Below are positions 2,786-10,921 of a DNA stretch of 11,814 bases, piece after piece. The stretch is taken from UHGV virus genome UHGV-0249779, one strand, 5' to 3'. A program made the position numbers and the translations under genes. Under the pieces are notes generated by a model. It ran no database searches. It was not told the origin of the DNA and saw nothing but the letters and a program-made list of their open reading frames with translations. This DNA comes from a virus. Each line of letters opens with the position of its first letter. Positions within the stretch are counted from its first letter, which is position 1.

Positions 2786-2808
2786 CCCCCGACAATTGCG
2801 TCAGGGGG
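2786..2808 (-). terminator. GC-rich stem-loop immediately 3' of the lipoprotein gene (possible terminator or RNA-stabilising hairpin for the cI-lipoprotein transcript)
   Basis: CCCCCGAC-aattgc-GTCAGGGGG inverted repeat with one bulge. No clear U-tract on the minus strand, hence low confidence. Confidence 0.3.
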
Positions 2809-2814
2809 GAGGGA

Positions 2815-3195
2815 TTATTGGGCTTTAATGTAATTTTTCAACTTTGCAGTTTGCTCTACAGCGCTAGGAATGCATCCAAACATATTTGCGCATGAGGTTT
2901 GAACAACAATTTCGTTCTTATCGTTTCCTAAAGGTGTTTTTACAACCTGATATCCAAGCACGGCACTATTTCCAATAGGAGTGTATGTGGAAATTACCGT
3001 TTCATCTGCCATCTGAATTTTCCAACCAGAATTCATTGCTATCCAAGCTTTGGCTCTCGACCAATATGTATCGCATTGCTCTTTACCTTGACAGTAAACT
3101 GGTTGTTGAGCTTGTGCGGCAATTTGGGGATCTATTTTCTGAGCACATCCAGAGATGCTAATCAGAATAGCTGCTGTAACGAATAGTTTTCTCAT
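2815..3195 (-). CDS. Putative lipoprotein of unknown function, immediately downstream of and co-oriented with cI (rex-position moron)
   Basis: Starts MRKLFVTAAILISISGC: a signal peptide with lipobox ISGC. AAGGA lies 7 nt upstream of the ATG at 3195; the ATG at 3201 has too short a spacer. The gene is AT-rich relative to its phage neighbours. The 41-bp gap to the cI stop suggests co-transcription from PRM. Confidence 0.7.
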   Translation of the reverse strand: MRKLFVTAAILISISGCAQKIDPQIAAQAQQPVYCQGKEQCDTYWSRAKAWIAMNSGWKIQMADETVISTYTPIGNSAVLGYQVVKTPLGNDKNEIVVQTSCANMFGCIPSAVEQTAKLKNYIKAQ

Positions 3196-3242
3196 TGACA
3201 TTTCCTTTGTTTTGAATATACAACAAATAAATTGGCAAAAAA

Positions 3243-3935
3243 TTATCCGTGTTTTCTATATGTCTGCGGCATGCTTCCAATGACTTTACCGAAGATGAAC
3301 ACCCGGTTCATCTCGTCTTTCTCGATCGGGTCCCACGGTGAGTAGCTCTTGTTATCAGAGATAACCAGCAGCTTATCCTTCATCATTTGCAGGCGCTTTA
3401 CATGGGCTGTGTCGTCGTACAGAAACGCATAGATACCATCACCGTCGAAAGATTTAACAGTGATATCAACGAACAAAAGATCACCTGGTTCGATCGTTCC
3501 TGACATGCTGTCACCGCGTACGTTAATGATGCGGATATTTTCTGCCTTCCTGCCATCGAACATGTGACGAGCATCGTCAAACGAGTACTCAACCGAGCGT
3601 AGAACTTCTACAAACTCACGATTGATGACACCCGGCCCGGCACTGACTTCTATATCAAGAACGTCAATCTTGAAGTATTTGGAATGGCTGACAGCAGGCT
3701 TCCCTGATTGTTGACCGTCATTTCTCATCGGGCCTATGCCTGATGAGAGCCACTCTGTTCGAACACCCAATGCATTAGCTATTTCAACAATTTTTGTTGA
3801 GCCGCGCGCGTTGCCGCTTGTCAGTCTCCAGATTGTGGGTTGAGCTACGCCAGACGCCTTTGCAAGAGCGCCTTGAGACATTCCAGATTGTTCCATCGCT
3901 AGGTTTAAGCGATCAGCAAGAGTTTCTTTTTTCAT
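3243..3935 (-). CDS. cI: CI-type prophage repressor (N-terminal HTH, C-terminal LexA-like S24 autopeptidase domain)
   Basis: HTH-like segment MSQGALAKASGVAQPTIWRL. C-terminal domain carries the GDSM serine motif and a downstream lysine (HVKRL), typical of S24 self-cleaving repressors. The ATG at 3935 is preferred over the TTG at 3971. A TATAAAT -10 sits 8 nt upstream of the ATG, consistent with a leaderless PRM transcript as in lambda. Confidence 0.85.
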   Translation of the reverse strand: MKKETLADRLNLAMEQSGMSQGALAKASGVAQPTIWRLTSGNARGSTKIVEIANALGVRTEWLSSGIGPMRNDGQQSGKPAVSHSKYFKIDVLDIEVSAGPGVINREFVEVLRSVEYSFDDARHMFDGRKAENIRIINVRGDSMSGTIEPGDLLFVDITVKSFDGDGIYAFLYDDTAHVKRLQMMKDKLLVISDNKSYSPWDPIEKDEMNRVFIFGKVIGSMPQTYRKHG

Positions 3936-4045
3936 AAGTTTTAATTTATACGCTTGCGTATTGATGGTCAAAACACGTTTTGCTATTGATTGGGTTAATG
4001 CGCATTGCTATTATCTATTCATTGTAATACCAATAGGAATTGATA
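3936..4045. promoter_or_regulatory. Divergent immunity control region (OR operators, PR and PRM)
   Basis: PR candidate on the plus strand: -35 TTGATT (3986..3991), 17-nt spacer, -10 TATTAT (4009..4014). Three palindromes: TACGCttGCGTA (3949..3960), CAAAACacGTTTTG (3969..3982) and the perfect AATGCGCATT (3997..4006) inside the PR spacer. PRM -10 TATAAAT lies on the minus strand at 3950..3944. Confidence 0.6.
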
Positions 4046-4303: not shown

Positions 4304-4843
4304 ATGCAACCAATTACATACCAACAGACTAGCGGATTTATCCCGACTGCGGTGATAAATCGTTCTCAAATAAAACAGGTGCCAGGCCACGAAAAAATCC
4401 GTGATGCCGTCCGCGCCTGGTCGGCTGCAGATAATCAGGATGTCGTTGCCGCACTCATTGTGAATGAGTATCGAGCACAGGGCGGCGGCACTATCGATTT
4501 TCCTGATGATGTCAGTCGTGCACGCCAGAAGCTGTTCCGCTTTCTCGATAACAAATTCGATTCTGAAAAATACCGAAATAACGTGCGTGAACTGACTCCA
4601 GCAATTCTGGCAGTACTACCGCTGAAATATCGCGGCCACCTGGTTGAGCAGGATAGCTTCATGGCTCGGCTGGCTGAAATGGAAAAGGAACTCAGTGAGG
4701 CAAAACAGGCTGTCATTCTCAACGCACCACGCCACCAGAAACTGAAGGAGATGAGTGAAGGCATTGTGTCGATGTTTCGTGTGGACCCGGATCTGGCTGG
4801 TCCATTAATGGCGATGGTGACCACCATGCTGGGGGCAATATGA
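4304..4843 (+). CDS. CII-position regulatory protein, YdaT-like
   Basis: 179 aa. Motifs NEYRAQGGG and LTPAILAVLPLKYRGHL match my recollection of Rac-prophage YdaT. Position is directly after cro and before the replication genes. Confidence 0.6.
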   Translation: MQPITYQQTSGFIPTAVINRSQIKQVPGHEKIRDAVRAWSAADNQDVVAALIVNEYRAQGGGTIDFPDDVSRARQKLFRFLDNKFDSEKYRNNVRELTPAILAVLPLKYRGHLVEQDSFMARLAEMEKELSEAKQAVILNAPRHQKLKEMSEGIVSMFRVDPDLAGPLMAMVTTMLGAI

Positions 4844-4929
4844 CAGGTTCAGAAATGGCGAAAGTCGGTCTGCGGGAACAGAACCGACTTTCAGGTGCAA
4901 ATCGTAACACACTCATTGCGGGAGGAATT

Positions 4930-5859
4930 ATGGCAAACACTGCTGAGATATTCAATTTTCCAGTGCCGGATGCGGCACAAAAGGAGCCGCGCGTGGCAGA
5001 TCTCGATGATGGTTATACGCGCATTGCAAATGAGTTGCTGGAAGCTGTGATGCTGGCCGGATTAACACAGCACCAGCTTCTGGTCTTCCTGGCTGTCATG
5101 CGCAAAACATATGGCTTTAATAAAAAACTGGATTGGGTGAGCAACGAGCAACTGTCCGAATTGACCGGGATATTGCCGCACAAGTGTTCTGCTGCAAAAA
5201 GTGTTCTGGTAAAGCGTGGGATTTTGATTCAGAGCGGGCGGAATATCGGTATTAATAATGTGGTCAGTGAATGGGCAACATTACCCGAATCAGGTAAGAA
5301 AAATAAAGTTTACCTGAAAGAGGTAAATTTACCTGAATCAGGTAAGAAAAGTTTACCCAAATCAGGTAAAGGCGTTTACCCGAATCAGGTAAACACAAAA
5401 GACAAACTAACAAAAGACAATATAAAACCTTTTTCGTCCGAGAATTCTGGCGAATCCTCTGACCAACCAGAAAACGATCTTCCTGTGGTGAAACCAGATG
5501 CTGCAATTCAGAGCGGCAGCAAGTGGGGGACAGCAGAAGACCTGACCGCCGCAGAGTGGATGTTTGACATGGTGAAGACCATCGCGCCCTCAGCCAGAAA
5601 ACCGAATTTTGCAGGGTGGGCTAACGATATCCGCCTGATGCGTGAACGTGACGGACGTAACCACCGCGACATGTGCGTGCTGTTCCGCTGGGCATGCCAG
5701 GACAACTTCTGGTCCGGTAACGTGCTGAGTCCGGCCAAACTCCGCGACAAGTGGACCCAGCTCGAAATCAACCGAAACAAGCAACAGGCTGGCGTGACAG
5801 CCGGCAAACCAAAACTCGACCTGACGAACACTGACTGGATTTACGGGGTGGATTTATGA
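4930..5859 (+). CDS. O: Replication initiator O (mosaic: distinct N-terminal iteron-binding domain, lambda-identical C-terminal P-interaction domain)
   Basis: Start preferred at ATG 4930 (GGAGG upstream; MANTAEIFNF aligns with lambda O MTNTAKILNF). The C-terminal roughly 110 aa (SKWGTAEDLTAAEWMFDMV...DWIYGVDL) match lambda O from recall. The track ORF extends to 4840. Confidence 0.9.
   Translation: MANTAEIFNFPVPDAAQKEPRVADLDDGYTRIANELLEAVMLAGLTQHQLLVFLAVMRKTYGFNKKLDWVSNEQLSELTGILPHKCSAAKSVLVKRGILIQSGRNIGINNVVSEWATLPESGKKNKVYLKEVNLPESGKKSLPKSGKGVYPNQVNTKDKLTKDNIKPFSSENSGESSDQPENDLPVVKPDAAIQSGSKWGTAEDLTAAEWMFDMVKTIAPSARKPNFAGWANDIRLMRERDGRNHRDMCVLFRWACQDNFWSGNVLSPAKLRDKWTQLEINRNKQQAGVTAGKPKLDLTNTDWIYGVDL
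5281..5393. repeat. Replication origin iterons: five 18-bp direct repeats, each an internal inverted repeat (TTACCyrAAtCAGGTAAr)
   Basis: Copies at 5281..5298, 5310..5327, 5329..5346, 5353..5370 and 5376..5393, inside the O coding sequence as in ori-lambda. The sequence differs from lambda's iterons. Confidence 0.85.
5394..5440. other. AT-rich DNA-unwinding region of the origin
   Basis: An A-rich tract (cacaaaagacaaactaacaaaagacaatataaaacctttttcg) immediately right of the iterons, matching the lambda ori layout. Confidence 0.6.
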
Positions 5860-6557
5860 AAAACATCGCCGCACAGATGGTTAACTTTGACCGTGAGCAG
5901 ATGCGTCGGATCGCCAACAACATGCCGGAACAGTACGACGAAAAGCCGCAGGTACAGCAGGTAGCGCAGATCATCAACGGTGTGTTCAGCCAGTTACTGG
6001 CAACTTTCCCGGCGAGCCTGGCTAACCGGGATCAGAACGAACTGAACGAAATCCGCCGCCAGTGGGTTCTGGCTTTCCGGGAAAACGGGATCACCACAAT
6101 GGAACAGGTTAACGCAGGAATGCGCGTAGCCCGTCGGCAGAATCGACCATTCCTGCCATCACCCGGGCAGTTTGTTGCATGGTGCCGGGAAGAAGCATCC
6201 GTTATCGCCGGACTGCCAAACGTCAGCGAGCTGGTTGATATGGTTTACGAGTATTGCCGGAAGCGAGGCCTGTATCCGGATGCGGAGTCTTATCCGTGGA
6301 AATCAAACGCGCACTACTGGCTGGTTACCAACCTGTATCAGAACATGCGGGCCAATGCGCTTACTGATGCGGAATTACGCCGTAAGGCCGCAGATGAGCT
6401 TGTCCATATGACTGCGAGAATTAACCGTGGTGAGGCGATCCCTGAACCAGTAAAACAACTTCCTGTCATGGGCGGTAGACCTCTAAATCGTACACAGGCT
6501 CTGGCGAAGATCGCAGAAATCAAAGCTAAGTTTGGGCTGAAAGGAGCAAGAGCATGA
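5856..6557 (+). CDS. P: Replication protein P (DnaB helicase loader)
   Basis: 233 aa, near-identical from recall to lambda P (MKNIAAQMVNFDREQMRRIANNMPEQYDEKPQVQQ...). ATGA overlap with O. Confidence 0.95.
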   Translation: MKNIAAQMVNFDREQMRRIANNMPEQYDEKPQVQQVAQIINGVFSQLLATFPASLANRDQNELNEIRRQWVLAFRENGITTMEQVNAGMRVARRQNRPFLPSPGQFVAWCREEASVIAGLPNVSELVDMVYEYCRKRGLYPDAESYPWKSNAHYWLVTNLYQNMRANALTDAELRRKAADELVHMTARINRGEAIPEPVKQLPVMGGRPLNRTQALAKIAEIKAKFGLKGARA

Positions 6558-6838
6558 CGGGCAAAGAGGCAATTATTCATTACCTGGGGACTCATAAGAA
6601 CTTCTGTGCGCAGGACGTTGCCGCGGTAACAGGCGCAACCGTAACCAGCATAAATCAGGCTGCGGCTAAAATGGCGCGGGCAGGAATCCTGGTCGTTGAT
6701 GGTAAGGTCTGGCGAACGGTGTATTACCGGTTCGCTACCAGAGAAGAACGGGAAGGAAAGGTGAGCACGAATATGATTTTTAAGGAGTGTCGCCAGAGTG
6801 CCGCGATGAAACGGGTATTGTCGGTATACAGAACTTAG
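6554..6838 (+). CDS. ren: Ren (Rex-exclusion resistance) protein
   Basis: 94 aa, MTGKEAIIHYLGTH...VWRTVYYRFATREEREGK, closely matching lambda Ren from recall. Confidence 0.85.
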   Translation: MTGKEAIIHYLGTHKNFCAQDVAAVTGATVTSINQAAAKMARAGILVVDGKVWRTVYYRFATREEREGKVSTNMIFKECRQSAAMKRVLSVYRT

Positions 6839-7014
6839 CATCGAAGGCCTATTGTTTTCGACAGGAGGCCATCGAAATGACACTATGGTACCGTCTTTAC
6901 CCACCGCCTTCTGCTAAGTTTAGGAATACAAGATGTTGCTGCCGTTAAAAAATAGTCGTAATTTCTATTAGAATTTGGGCAATATAACCAGCACATAGAT
7001 AAGGGAGTCGTTTT

Positions 7015-7263
7015 ATGCACGAACTATTTGTGCTGGTTTTGAGCACCTGTGCTAGCCTCAGCAATATGTCAGGTTGTTCAGTGGAAGTAGTGAATGTCAA
7101 CACCACAAAAGAGCCGGTAAACGTCTTTTATAGCAGGAAAGACTGCGAAGAAAGCATGAAAAACATTATGCTAAATCATGCTCTATACCATGAAGTATCA
7201 GGCAGAGAGCCATATATGGCAAAGTGCGAACAAGTATTTGTCTCAAAAAGTTTAATGAAATAA
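7015..7263 (+). CDS. Hypothetical small protein (82 aa), first gene of an AT-rich insertion
   Basis: AAGGGAG lies 7 nt upstream of the ATG. Low GC by eye compared with flanking ren and ybcN. Cysteine-containing with a hydrophobic N-terminus; no family recognised. Confidence 0.5.
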   Translation: MHELFVLVLSTCASLSNMSGCSVEVVNVNTTKEPVNVFYSRKDCEESMKNIMLNHALYHEVSGREPYMAKCEQVFVSKSLMK

Positions 7264-7306
7264 TTGGCCAAAAACGACATATAACAAAATCTTATAGGAG
7301 CTTAAC

Positions 7307-7588
7307 GTGGAAGATTACTTAGTTTTTGGTTTAGGTCATGAAGGCGATATAAAGAACGATGAAGCAGGGCTTGATAAGATAAGCGTGGTAACGAAATCGG
7401 TAGTGCGTTCTACCAATTCCAATGAACCAGTGGTTTACCAAGTGACTGAGTTTAAAGAATTTAATGTTGTGAGACATCAAGCGTTTGATAGTGAATACTA
7501 CAACATAGCATTCGATGTCTTACCATCCCGCGTCCGTATTGATGCTGCAATCCGTAAATATCACCCCAAGAAATCCTCCTCAGCTTAG
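7307..7588 (+). CDS. Hypothetical small protein (93 aa), second gene of the AT-rich insertion
   Basis: GTG start with TAGGAG 6 nt upstream. Same AT-rich composition and orientation as the 82-aa ORF, 43 bp downstream of it. No family recognised. Confidence 0.45.
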   Translation: MEDYLVFGLGHEGDIKNDEAGLDKISVVTKSVVRSTNSNEPVVYQVTEFKEFNVVRHQAFDSEYYNIAFDVLPSRVRIDAAIRKYHPKKSSSA

Positions 7589-7776
7589 TAAGCTTTGATT
7601 TTCCATTATCAACCAGCAATAATAATGTCCTCGGAGCCTGAACAACTCCGGTGACTTCTGCGCTAAACGGGGACGTTTATGCGCACATACAATCCAAACT
7701 CTCTTCTCCCTTCACTGATGCAGAAATGCACCTGCAATTCTTTGCATCTAGCGTTTGACCTCTGCGGAGGTGAAGC

Positions 7777-8232
7777 GTGAACCTCCCACAAGACGGCATC
7801 AAATTACATCGCGGCAACTTCACCGCTATCGGCCAGCAGATCCAGCCTTATCTGGAGGAAGGCAAATGCTTTCGCATGGTGCTTAAACCGTGGCGTGAGA
7901 AACGCAGTCTTTCCCAGAATGCACTCAGCCACATGTGGTACAGCGAAATCAGTGAATACCTCATCAGCAGGGGGAAATCGTTCGCTACTTCAGCATGGGT
8001 AAAAGATGCTCTCAAACACACATACCTCGGTTATGAAACCAAGGACCTGGTTGATGTCGTAACCGGTGATATCACCACTATCCAGTCGTTACGCCATACC
8101 TCCGATCTTGATACCGGAGAGATGTATGTCTTCCTGTGTAAGGTTGAAGCCTGGGCGATGAATATTGGCTGCCACCTGACTATTCCACAGAGCTGCGAGT
8201 TTCAGCTGCTGCGCGACAAGCAGGAGGCGTAA
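7777..8232 (+). CDS. ybcN: YbcN/NinB-family protein (recombination, ssDNA-binding)
   Basis: 151 aa, GTG start with GGAGG 7 nt upstream. Matches my recollection of DLP12 YbcN ([19 protein letters not shown]...LLRDKQEA). Confidence 0.8.
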
Positions 8233-8402
8233 TGGCTACACCGCTTATTCGTGTCATGAACGGACACATCTACAGAGTACCAAATCGTCGTAAGCGTAAA
8301 CCTGAGCTGAAGCCATCCGAAATACCAACACTGCTCGGATATACCGCCAGCTTGGTTGATAAAAAATGGTTGCGACTGGCAGCAAGGAGGAGTCATGGCT
8401 GA
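8232..8402 (+). CDS. ninE: NinE-family small protein (56 aa); not in the supplied ORF track
   Basis: Hand-translated from the ATG at 8232 (TAATG overlap with ybcN): [56 protein letters not shown]. Sits in the ninE slot of the DLP12-type nin region. Confidence 0.65.
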   Translation: MATPLIRVMNGHIYRVPNRRKRKPELKPSEIPTLLGYTASLVDKKWLRLAARRSHG

Positions 8403-8685
8403 TTTGAGAAAAGCAGCGAGTGGTCGGGAATGCCAGGTAAGAATCCCTGGCGTATGTAATGGCAACCCTGAAACGTCTGTACTGGCACATATCCGGCTGA
8501 CTGGATTGTGCGGCACCGGTACGAAACCGCCAGACCTGATTGCCACCATTGCATGTTCTGCCTGCCACGACGAAATCGACCGCCGCACGCATTTTGTTGA
8601 CGCTGGATATGCAAAAGAATGCGCGCTGGAAGGTATGGCGAGAACGCAGGTTATCTGGCTGAAAGAGGGGGTAATTAAGGCGTGA
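8395..8685 (+). CDS. ybcO: YbcO/DUF1364-family protein (cysteine-rich, putative metal-binding nuclease)
   Basis: 96 aa from ATG 8395, with AGGAGG upstream ([23 protein letters not shown]...[11 protein letters not shown]). The track start at 8356 is a TTG. Confidence 0.75.
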
Positions 8686-9044
8686 ATACTTACCACATCA
8701 CACTACCCTGGCCGCCGAGCAATAACCGCTACTACCGCCATAATCGAGGGCGCACGCACATCAGCGCAGAAGGGCAGGCATACCGCGATAACGTCGCCCG
8801 AATCATTAAAGGCTCAATGCTGGATATCGGTCTGGCTATGCCTGTGAAAATCCGCATTGAGTGCCACATGCCGGATCGCCGTCGCCGTGACCTGGATAAT
8901 CTGCAAAAAGCCGCTTTTGACGCACTCACTAAAGCAGGTTTCTGGCTGGATGATGAGCTGGTCGTTGATTACCGCGTTGTGAAGATGCCTGTTACCAAAG
9001 GTGGGAAGCTGGAACTGACCATCACTGAACTGGGAGATGAATGA
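8682..9044 (+). CDS. rusA: RusA Holliday junction resolvase
   Basis: 120 aa, [41 protein letters not shown]..., near-identical from recall to E. coli RusA. GTGA overlap with ybcO. Confidence 0.95.
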
Positions 9045-9181
9045 TGTTTGAGTCTTATATGGCAGAACGTCTTCGCCGCCGCTGGGTGCGCCTGCGCTTA
9101 TATCGTTTCCCCGGTTCTGTTTTGACCGATTACCGAATACTGAAGAGTTACGCCAAAACCCTGACAGGAGCAGGAGTATGA
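9041..9181 (+). CDS. ylcG: YlcG-like small protein (46 aa); not in the supplied ORF track
   Basis: Hand-translated: [50 protein letters not shown] overlap with rusA, in the ylcG slot of the DLP12 gene order. Confidence 0.6.
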
Positions 9182-9266
9182 AGTCAGAGATAACAATCAA
9201 CTAATACTGTTTTGTTGATTTTTGCTTGTAATTGGCGTTTTGGTCTGATTTTTGTGGAGTAAGTTG

Positions 9267-9650
9267 ATGCGTGATATTCAGATGGTTCTTGAGCGTTGGG
9301 GAGCGTGGGCGGCTAATAATCATGAAGATGTGACCTGGTCGTCCATTGCCGCCGGTTTTAAGGGATTAATTCCTTCAAAAGTAAAATCTCGCCCGCAATG
9401 TTGTGACGATGACGCGATGATCATTTGCGGGTGCATGGCCCGTCTGAAAAAGAACAACAGCGATTTGCACGATTTATTAGTAGATTATTATATAGTCGGT
9501 ATGACATTCATGTCACTGGCAGGTAAGCATTGCTGCTCTGATGGTTATATCGGGAAAAGGTTACAAAAGGCTGAGGGCATAATTGAAGGGATGTTAATGG
9601 CATTAGATATCCGGTTAGAGATGGATATCGTTGTTAATAACTCTAATTAA
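9267..9650 (+). CDS. quuD: Late-gene antiterminator Q (QuuD/phage-82/21 type)
   Basis: 127 aa from ATG 9267, with GGAG 7 nt upstream: [21 protein letters not shown]...[20 protein letters not shown]..., matching DLP12 QuuD from recall. The track start at 9252 is a TTG. Confidence 0.85.
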
Positions 9651-9669
9651 TACGCCAATTATTTACTAA

Positions 9670-9701
9670 AAGTTATTAAAAATGGGGCGTTGAAACGCCC
9701 C
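9670..9701 (-). terminator. Rho-independent terminator for the porin transcript
   Basis: Hairpin GGGGCGT-tgaa-ACGCCCC (9684..9701), followed on the minus strand by ATTTTTAATAAC. Confidence 0.5.
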
Positions 9702-9724
9702 CAAAAATAAAGGGTAATATATAA
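9690..9724 (+). promoter_or_regulatory. Candidate late promoter PR' (Q-utilisation region)
   Basis: -35-like TTGAAA (9690..9695) with -10-like GGTAAT/TAATAT/TATATA candidates at 9713..9724, 17-19 nt downstream. Placement directly 3' of Q follows the lambdoid pattern. Sequence-only inference. Confidence 0.3.
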
Positions 9725-9789
9725 CAGAAGGTTTATATAGTTAGAAGCAAGGTTGTGCTTCTAAAGGAAGTGGCTTGAGGGAGCCACTT

Positions 9790-9838: not shown

Positions 9839-10921
9839 TTAGAACTGGTAAACCATACCTACAGCAACGATATCATCGGTAGCAACGCCAGATGCTTTCG
9901 TGAAATCGCTCTTATCAATCAGGTTGATTTTGTAGTCAACAAAAGTGGACATATTTTTGTTGAAGTAATAGGTTGCACCTACATCAACATATTCAACCAG
10001 GTCCTGATCACCCCAAACACCCAAGTCTTTTCCTTTAGAATGCAGGTAAGCAACGGATGGACGCAGGCCGAAGTCGAACTGATATTGTGCAACAGCTTCG
10101 AAGTTTTGTGCTTTGTTGGCAATATGGTTATTACCAAAAACAGTCATGTTCTGGGTTTCAGAATAGGTGGTGGCCAGATAGATGTTGTTCGCATCATATT
10201 TCAGACCAGCTGCCCATACTTCAGCATTTTGACCAGAAGCATTCAGACCGTTGTTACCGTAGATAACCTGATTATTAGTGCGATCAGATTTAGCATAGGT
10301 TGCACCCACGCCGAATCCTTCATACTCATAAGTAGTTGAGAAACCGAAACCATCGCCATTAGCTTCAGTTACTTCATTTCGGTCATTTTTGCCCTGATAC
10401 TGAGCTGCAAAGTTCAGGCCATCAACCAGACCAAAGAAGTCGTTGTTACGATAAGTTGCAACACCTGTGGTGCGACCAGTCATGAATACATCTGTTTGGG
10501 TCCAGGTATCGCCACCGAATTCTGGCAGAACGTCGGTCCATGCACCGATGTCGTATGCTACACCGTAGTTACGGCCGTAATCGATGGAGCCGTAGTCACC
10601 GAATTTCAGGCCAGCGAAGGCAAGACGGGTTTTATCTTTGGAGGAACCTTGAGATTCAGCGCGGTTGCCTTTGAATTCATATTCCCACTGACCGAAACCA
10701 GTCAGTTGATCGTTGATTTGGGTTTCACCTTTGAAGCCAAGACGGGCATAAGTAGTATCACCATCATCTGCATCATTAGAGGAGAAGTAGTGCTTAGCAT
10801 TAACTTTCCCGTACAGATCCAGCTTGTTACTGTCTTTATTATAAATTTCAGCTGCCTGAGCAGACATCGCCATCAGTACTGATGCAGCTACAGCAGAAAT
10901 TGCCACTGTTAATTTTTTCAT
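9839..10921 (-). CDS. nmpC: Outer-membrane general porin of the OmpC/OmpF family, prophage-borne (NmpC/Lc type), apparently intact
   Basis: 360 aa. Signal peptide [23 protein letters not shown] followed by AEIYNKD...; C-terminal ...VGMVYQF with terminal Phe; a beta-barrel-like alternating aromatic/Gly composition. Location between Q and the holin, antisense, matches DLP12 nmpC and the PA-2 lc gene. Confidence 0.9.

Follow-up and report, generated by a model that had tools for sequence, protein, structure and literature searches.

What are the two small genes which lie between the lambda-like gene ren and ybcN in UHGV virus genome UHGV-0249779, and do they belong together? The window, that is, the whole stretch of 11,814 nucleotides (nt) analysed here, represents the early region of a lambdoid prophage as judged from gene order and family matches, and the genes in question are two open reading frames (ORFs), ORF1 and ORF2, within an AT-rich island. 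With fair confidence we regard this block as an accessory cassette, independent cargo in a lambdoid hotspot, which is probably expressed from the PR promoter and may specify products of a binder class. It is ordinary accessory cargo, composed of uncharacterised genes in a known hotspot, and nothing structurally or mechanistically surprising has so far emerged from it.

The island proper measures 754 bp (6839–7592) and is situated between ren and the nin leader/ybcN. The first-pass annotation had let it run from 6839 to 7776; the left end stands, but the right end falls at about 7592, after which the common nin leader follows. The estimate of about 40% GC between two GC-richer flanks was accurate: we measured 39.8% (0.398) for the island, with 0.394 for ORF1 and 0.408 for ORF2, against 0.510 for O-P-ren and 0.517 for ybcN to rusA, which puts the island ~11 points below the neighbouring genes. 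The sliding GC profile reaches its minimum of 0.37 at 7100–7500. GC at third codon positions is lower too, being 0.43 in ORF1 and 0.37 in ORF2 compared with 0.52–0.58 in O-P-ren and 0.50–0.61 from ybcN to rusA. In composition the island is foreign relative to both of its flanks, the identities of which as ren and ybcN were upheld by family matches (Table 1).

The two ORFs are co-oriented, possess good Shine-Dalgarno sites, and are located where they had originally been placed. Compared with homologues that are ~80–87% identical, the ratio of nonsynonymous to synonymous substitution (dN/dS) is 0.13–0.14 for ORF1 and 0.12–0.18 for ORF2, at dS values of 0.4–0.85 across both ORFs and with 19–28 synonymous differences per gene. 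Such ratios (0.12–0.18) indicate that both are real protein-coding genes under purifying selection. Both frames are full-length in more than 40 loci.

Of 5426 complete Escherichia coli genomes, 90 contain the block as a unit, 89 of the copies being at least 99% identical; the adjacent nin leader is found in 2824 of these genomes, and the block in 90 of the 2824. Among the carriers are the Stx1 prophage of O157:H7 (with stx1A downstream of Q), O55:H7 strains, and a prophage of O9:H10, the late-region cargo of which is quite different. From 6756 to 7655 the window is ~100% identical to the O157 Stx1 prophage, compared with 86–94% over the 3' end of P and ren and 95–97% over the nin genes. The same picture is seen among unrelated prophages (O157 Stx1, O9:H10 and the porin-carrying one described here), the block being ~100% and the flanks 86–97% identical. 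A near-identical block between diverged flanks is characteristic of a cassette recently exchanged through recombination in those flanks. Homologous ORF1-ORF2 pairs are present in Enterobacter prophages and ORF2 homologues in Klebsiella; neither ORF was found in any GTDB species-representative genome.

Other phages fill this slot differently. The sister prophage L070 from E. coli JKHS004, which matches most of the window at 97% identity, has at this ren/ylcH junction (8236–9727 of that prophage) a DUF4145 gene, a theta pseudogene and a gene for a hypothetical protein of 160 amino acids (aa), which confirms the slot as a cargo hotspot. In DLP12 of K-12 this junction is occupied by emrE-ybcK-ybcL-ybcM.

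Table 1. Features of the window, positions being counted from its first nucleotide
Feature	Position	Strand	Remarks
exo, bet, gam		minus	
Lipoprotein-signal gene	2815–3201	minus	128 aa; adjoins cI-like repressor gene
cI-like repressor	3243–3971	minus	followed by cro-like gene and YdaT-domain gene
O	4840–5859		
P	5856–6557		
ren	6554–6838	+	left flank, outside island; phrog_142, Ren-like exclusion protein, E 1.8e-40
Left segment, E. coli form of island	6839–6937	not assigned	
Gene relic	~6938–6955	+	last codons and TAG stop of ~209-aa hypothetical gene (alignment A6)
ORF1	7015–7263	+	82 aa; ATG start; AAGGGAG at 7001–7007, 7 nt before start
ORF1-ORF2 spacer	7264–7306	+	43 nt; includes ORF2 Shine-Dalgarno site
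ORF2	7307–7588	+	93 aa; GTG start (ATG in homologues); AGGAG at 7296–7300, 6 nt before start
nin leader	7593–7776	+	right flank, conserved, outside island
ylcH/orf33-like ORF	7679–7780	+	33 codons; annotated in RefSeq homologues; GTGA overlap with ybcN start
ybcN/ninB-family gene	7777–8232	+	right flank; NinB family, phrog_72, E 3.6e-52
ninE, ybcO, rusA, ylcG, Q antiterminator			downstream of ybcN, in this order
Porin gene	9839–10921	minus	OmpC/NmpC-like; between Q antiterminator and holin

The ends of the cassette can be followed in the alignments. Its left segment is present in all 89 E. coli copies at 99% identity or more, could not be aligned to the Enterobacter-type loci, and gave no blastn match in 50,697 phage records; the alignment of the divergent copy XJ5.2 (82.5%) begins at query base 94, or ~6932. 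Homology to 10 other loci begins at ~6938 (alignment A6), which in those loci is the 3' end of the gene upstream of ORF1. In all Enterobacter-type loci a ~209-aa hypothetical gene precedes ORF1, and the relic of this gene in the window, as read from the alignment, marks the left recombination junction. The 176 nt before ORF1 are thus a composite. Of the non-coding DNA which had been described on both sides of the genes, that on the downstream side shrinks to the 90 nt after ORF2, beyond which the 33-codon ORF follows. Within the segment peculiar to E. coli there is also a 23-codon ORF (6877–6948; MTLWYRLYPPPSAKFRNTRCCCR) with AGGAGG 8 nt upstream and no other support as a gene. The spacer between ORF1 and ORF2 is the junction at which upstream cargo gets swapped in other phages; in locus L010 a ~30-nt leader of ORF2 is kept behind a Zn-ribbon gene.

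Based upon these arrangements we propose that the cassette occupies a hotspot between the replication module (O-P-ren) and the nin leader (ylcH-ybcN/ninB). Several unrelated small genes would stack there, ORF2 being the one immediately before the leader and ORF1 an orphan added upstream of it, and no mutual dependence would be required. Both would be non-essential delayed-early genes, served during lytic growth by N-antiterminated transcription from PR if the lambda paradigm applies; their co-orientation with the early-right operon makes such PR-driven, delayed-early transcription the most likely mode.

Several observations weigh against this proposal. ORF1 is always followed by ORF2 at a distance of 43–48 nt, with no exception in ~120 occurrences: 90 complete genomes, 18 of 18 IMG/VR contigs, 11 of 11 metagenome contigs (two of which duplicate IMG/VR contigs) and loci L003, L007 and L012. 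This linkage persists across lineages at dS ~0.75 and through mosaic contexts with exchange of both outer flanks, and functional dependence might lie behind it. A promoter-like site and a conserved stem at the start of ORF1, both described below, could indicate independent regulation. Finally, the binder or counter-defence class which we suggest for the products finds no support in homology.

The foremost alternative, which we consider unlikely, builds on this linkage and holds that ORF1 and ORF2 form a functional module, for example a membrane-directed or toxic ORF1 with a neutralising or activating ORF2 (toxin-first, as in higBA), or an exclusion or defence system. Both genes show similar divergence between the window and Enterobacter (dS 0.73 and 0.68), and the hydrophobic N-terminus of ORF1 would also suit a module. 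The linkage is one-sided, however, and ORF2 can stand alone. The genes do not overlap, neither product resembles toxin, antitoxin or defence families, and ORF2 lacks a DNA-binding motif and has relatives that are stand-alone with varied neighbours. Moreover, one and the same ORF2 allele is found behind unrelated genes: the identical protein P0011 is encoded behind ORF1 in L007, an Enterobacter prophage, and also behind the gene for an unrelated 79-aa DUF2767-like cytoplasmic protein in L005, L006, L008, L009 and L036 (and in 19 similar places), and in Klebsiella aerogenes a 60-aa Zn-ribbon gene precedes ORF2. A further locus, L026 (IMGVR_UViG_2671181086_000002, 2795–3070), has an intact ORF1 and an ORF2 with 1-nt and 2-nt deletions between which the frame is lost; this is either a pseudogene, which would speak against dependence, or a sequencing error.

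Since the nin leader supplies conserved right-hand homology for exchange, upstream cargo would move only together with ORF2, and with the leader as anchor the one-sided linkage of ORF1 can be explained without functional coupling. The pair is not obligate, ORF2 occurring behind unrelated genes. A check of co-occurrence, which the first-pass annotation had called for, therefore gave a divided answer: ORF1 always comes with ORF2, but ORF2 does not always come with ORF1. The toxin-antitoxin-like or defence/anti-defence pair which that annotation had suggested found no match in PADLOC, Pfam or NCBIfam, and neither a type II toxin-antitoxin nor a defence pair is supported.

We also considered, and rejected, an obligate system composed of ORF2 and a variable upstream gene, since most of the DUF2767-like and Zn-ribbon genes are not accompanied by ORF2. 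In IMG/VR, 20 of 22 DUF2767-like loci and all 23 Zn-ribbon loci have these genes directly before ninB with no ORF2-family gene between. Of the remaining DUF2767-like loci one has ORF2 downstream and the other, L090, a family member upstream. The latter (723–1004 of L090) is a distant relative, 35% identical to P0054, and lies ~500 bp upstream of the DUF2767-like gene; members of the ORF2 family thus turn up again in this hotspot, with the gene order changed.

As far as its sequence tells, ORF1 is an orphan protein. Its relatives comprise only 9 clusters, each at least 77% identical, among 5.8 billion, and every source calls it a hypothetical protein. It has no Pfam, NCBIfam or PADLOC match (E ≤ 1) and none in a PDB profile search; against PHROGs there were weak matches only (E ≥ 0.016), all to families of unknown function, and the AF2 model is unusable (pLDDT 46). 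That neither protein could be recognised by eye is in keeping with these searches, in which no family of known function and no known nin-region family was matched by ORF1 or ORF2. The description of ORF1 as a cysteine-containing protein with a hydrophobic N-terminus was likewise correct: the hydrophobic stretch covers residues 4–15, and Cys 12, 21, 44 and 71 are invariant. Public annotations differ as to the start of ORF1, which is set either at Met1 (7015, 82 aa) or at Met18 (7066, 65 aa). Of the two only Met1 has a Shine-Dalgarno site, and residues 1–17 are conserved with mostly synonymous variation; because of this site and the invariant N-terminus the 82-aa form is favoured.

Second among the alternatives, and also unlikely, indeed slightly more so, is the reading of the block as a classical lysogenic-conversion moron, with a promoter of its own that is active in the repressed prophage and with ORF1 as an exported or lipid-anchored envelope protein, for example one for superinfection exclusion. 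The AT-richness and the intergenic spacers, unusual for nin genes, agree with this, as does the promoter-like sequence TTAAAA-N18-TAGAAT at 6945–6974 (+ strand), which matches the sigma-70 consensus at 9 of 12 positions. Its −35-like element TTAAAA and the N18 spacing are conserved in other lineages, the Enterobacter-type loci having TAAAGT as the second element. However, promoter-like matches occur in the region at the chance rate (3 found, 2.7 expected in shuffled sequence), and a terminator scan of the region revealed no intrinsic terminator flanking the block and none after ORF2. In Enterobacter-type phages, furthermore, ORF1 is preceded, at 58 nt, by another co-oriented early gene. A promoter of its own is possible for the block. 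Of the acquired moron with its own promoter that had been postulated, it is the exchanged foreign cargo (90/2824) that is substantiated, and not the promoter.

With regard to export, the hydrophobic stretch of ORF1 is followed by MSG-C21, and two further invariant cysteines could form a disulfide. Yet N-M-S-G-C does not fit the lipobox patterns (PROSITE-like, G+LPPv2 and DOLOP), all three of which are passed by the control, the gene at 2815–3201. The failure is due to the absence of Lys or Arg from the N-region (residues 1–7) and to Asn at −4, with Met at −3, relative to Cys21. ORF1 as a canonical lipoprotein was rejected on these pattern rules; a non-canonical signal is still conceivable. Nor did PHROGs yield any match to the families of Cor, Llp or Bor.

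ORF2, to judge from its model and its relatives, is a soluble member of a small phage-only family of beta-rich ~90-aa proteins. The AF2 model (pLDDT 73) has five strands and a C-terminal helix. ORF2 matches phrog_16870 over its full length (residues 1–93 of 93) [E 7.7e-63] and has a weaker match to phrog_17438; among the 22 family members that were scanned, phrog_16870 is matched by 16, phrog_17438 by 15 and phrog_23640 by 7. All three families are of unknown function and uncharacterised, for which reason membership gives no function. A HMMER profile search found only 26 representative clusters among 1.84 billion proteins, nearly all of them stand-alone proteins of ~90 aa, the single large match being one of 2503 aa with 11 short stretches. 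The 22 members (alignment A7) share an N-terminal DY-x-x-F/I-G-x-G-x-x-G and a central G-x-x-Y-N/A-h-A motif, and most end in P-x-P, where ORF2 itself has P-K-K. No match was found for ORF2 in Pfam, NCBIfam or PADLOC at E ≤ 1, nor a sequence or fold match in PDB, and the family members gave no significant Pfam or PDB match. A context search for distant relatives in IMG/VR and GenBank phages yielded none or marginal matches only. In Klebsiella prophages a ~32% identical relative is found in the same early-right region, mostly beside theta-like and DinI-like genes.

Ranking behind the two alternatives above is the more far-reaching idea that ORF2 represents a new fold and family of early inhibitors of host function or defence and ORF1 its dependent partner, the two making up a host-modulating or exclusion module carried also by the O157:H7 Stx1 prophage. 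We regard this as unlikely, too.

The start of ORF1 possesses a further conserved feature. A perfect 10-bp inverted repeat with arms at 6986–6995 and 7029–7038 (AACCAGCACA / TGTGCTGGTT), followed by TTTTGAG, encloses a 33-nt loop which holds the Shine-Dalgarno site and AUG of ORF1. The arms are invariant in 11 diverged loci and the loop is variable; with the lone C-to-T change the pairing survives as G-U. The fold has a z-score of only −1.15, ORF1 codons 1–22 show a marginal deficit of synonymous change (p = 0.03–0.12), and Rfam gave a sub-threshold chance match only. The stem might control translation, stabilise the 5' end or act as a weak terminator. It is hardly credible, in spite of this stem and the marginal synonymous deficit, that the ORFs are chance open frames in an AT-rich spacer or that a conserved RNA or regulatory element exists here instead of proteins, in view of the dN/dS values and synonymous differences, the strong Shine-Dalgarno sites, the full-length frames elsewhere, the remote protein relatives of ORF2 (~20–35% identical) and the lack of an Rfam match; as to the coding status of both ORFs, chance frames are refuted by these comparisons.

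Returning to independent cargo, probably expressed from PR, the products may bind host or phage proteins stoichiometrically and serve host takeover or counter-defence. This class is the most likely one because the proteins are small, carry no enzymatic or DNA-binding signatures and have host-modulating neighbours. Theta-like, DinI-like and Lar-like Zn-ribbon proteins are encoded in the same region, the Lar match being weak (E 0.0097), and Ren is an anti-exclusion protein. Time and again small accessory proteins made early from such hotspots have proved to inhibit host defence or repair, a precedent which makes ORF1 and ORF2 reasonable subjects, at low cost, for a functional screen. Carriers of the block include, besides other lambdoid prophages of E. 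coli, the medically important Stx1-converting prophage of strains O157:H7 and O55:H7, and the two proteins have no characterised relative or recognisable fold. The finding adds another cassette to the cargo of a mosaic hotspot that was already known, and the idea of an obligate pair is corrected.

To the right of the island the sequence from 7593–7632 onward is common to phage 82 and many coliphages. The nin leader includes an invariant hairpin, CGGAG-N9-CTCCG, at 7632–7650 (alignment A6). The surrounding block at 7629–7666 (GTCCTCGGAGCCTGAACAACTCCGGTGACTTCTGCGC), with its 5-bp stem and 9-nt loop, is invariant in all loci examined and kept in many coliphages, and the phage 82 record labels a "possible regulator-binding site" near the equivalent block. 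The ORF at 7679–7780 is equivalent to orf33 of phage 82 and ylcH of DLP12. RefSeq names the product of ybcN "DNA base-flipping protein YbcN" and, on the other side of the island, a 100% identical homologue of the ren product "protein ren."

Toward the ends of the window two further genes deserve mention. The position of the porin gene between Q and the holin is the same as in DLP12; elsewhere among prophages with the island it is taken by stx1 (O157) or by NYN-domain and DNA-methyltransferase genes (O9:H10). The product of the minus-strand gene at 2815–3201 bears a textbook lipoprotein signal (MSMRKLFVTAAILISISG-C) and has no Pfam match, and the gene has a rexAB-like position beside the repressor; at the equivalent position a sister prophage has DUF3037 and one hypothetical gene. 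As a lysogen-expressed moron this gene is a more promising candidate than the ORF1/ORF2 block.

Among known systems the nearest are the nin/ren accessory genes (ren and ninA-ninH of lambda, ninA-ninZ of P22), which the block resembles in its position between the replication genes and Q, its orientation and the small size of its products. The nin genes are dispensable and mosaic, tightly packed, and have overlapping stop and start codons (PMC8022706). In the block, by contrast, there are spacers of 176, 43 and 90 nt, the GC content is lower by the margin given above, and neither ORF has a profile match in Pfam or PHROGs to the named Nin families (NinB, NinE, NinF, NinG, NinH and others).

Type II toxin-antitoxin systems are likewise composed of two small, co-oriented, adjacent genes on a mobile element, and ORF1 is never alone; unlike them the block has no family homology (PADLOC-DB v2 returned no family for ORF1, ORF2 or the 33-aa ORF at E ≤ 1), no overlap and no DNA-binding domain, the neighbours of ORF2 are promiscuous, and co-occurrence is not obligate. 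With the morons of Hendrix and Juhala the block shares its presence or absence between conserved flanks and its distinct base composition; it differs in that a promoter and terminator of its own, which define a moron, are not demonstrable and in lying within, and co-oriented with, the early lytic operon. The remaining comparison is with the other cargo of the ren/ylcH-ybcN slot, namely the genes of JKHS004 and the DUF2767-like and Zn-ribbon genes of Enterobacter and Klebsiella. ORF1 and ORF2 differ from these in having no annotated domain, and are like them in that the same slot is filled by unrelated proteins.

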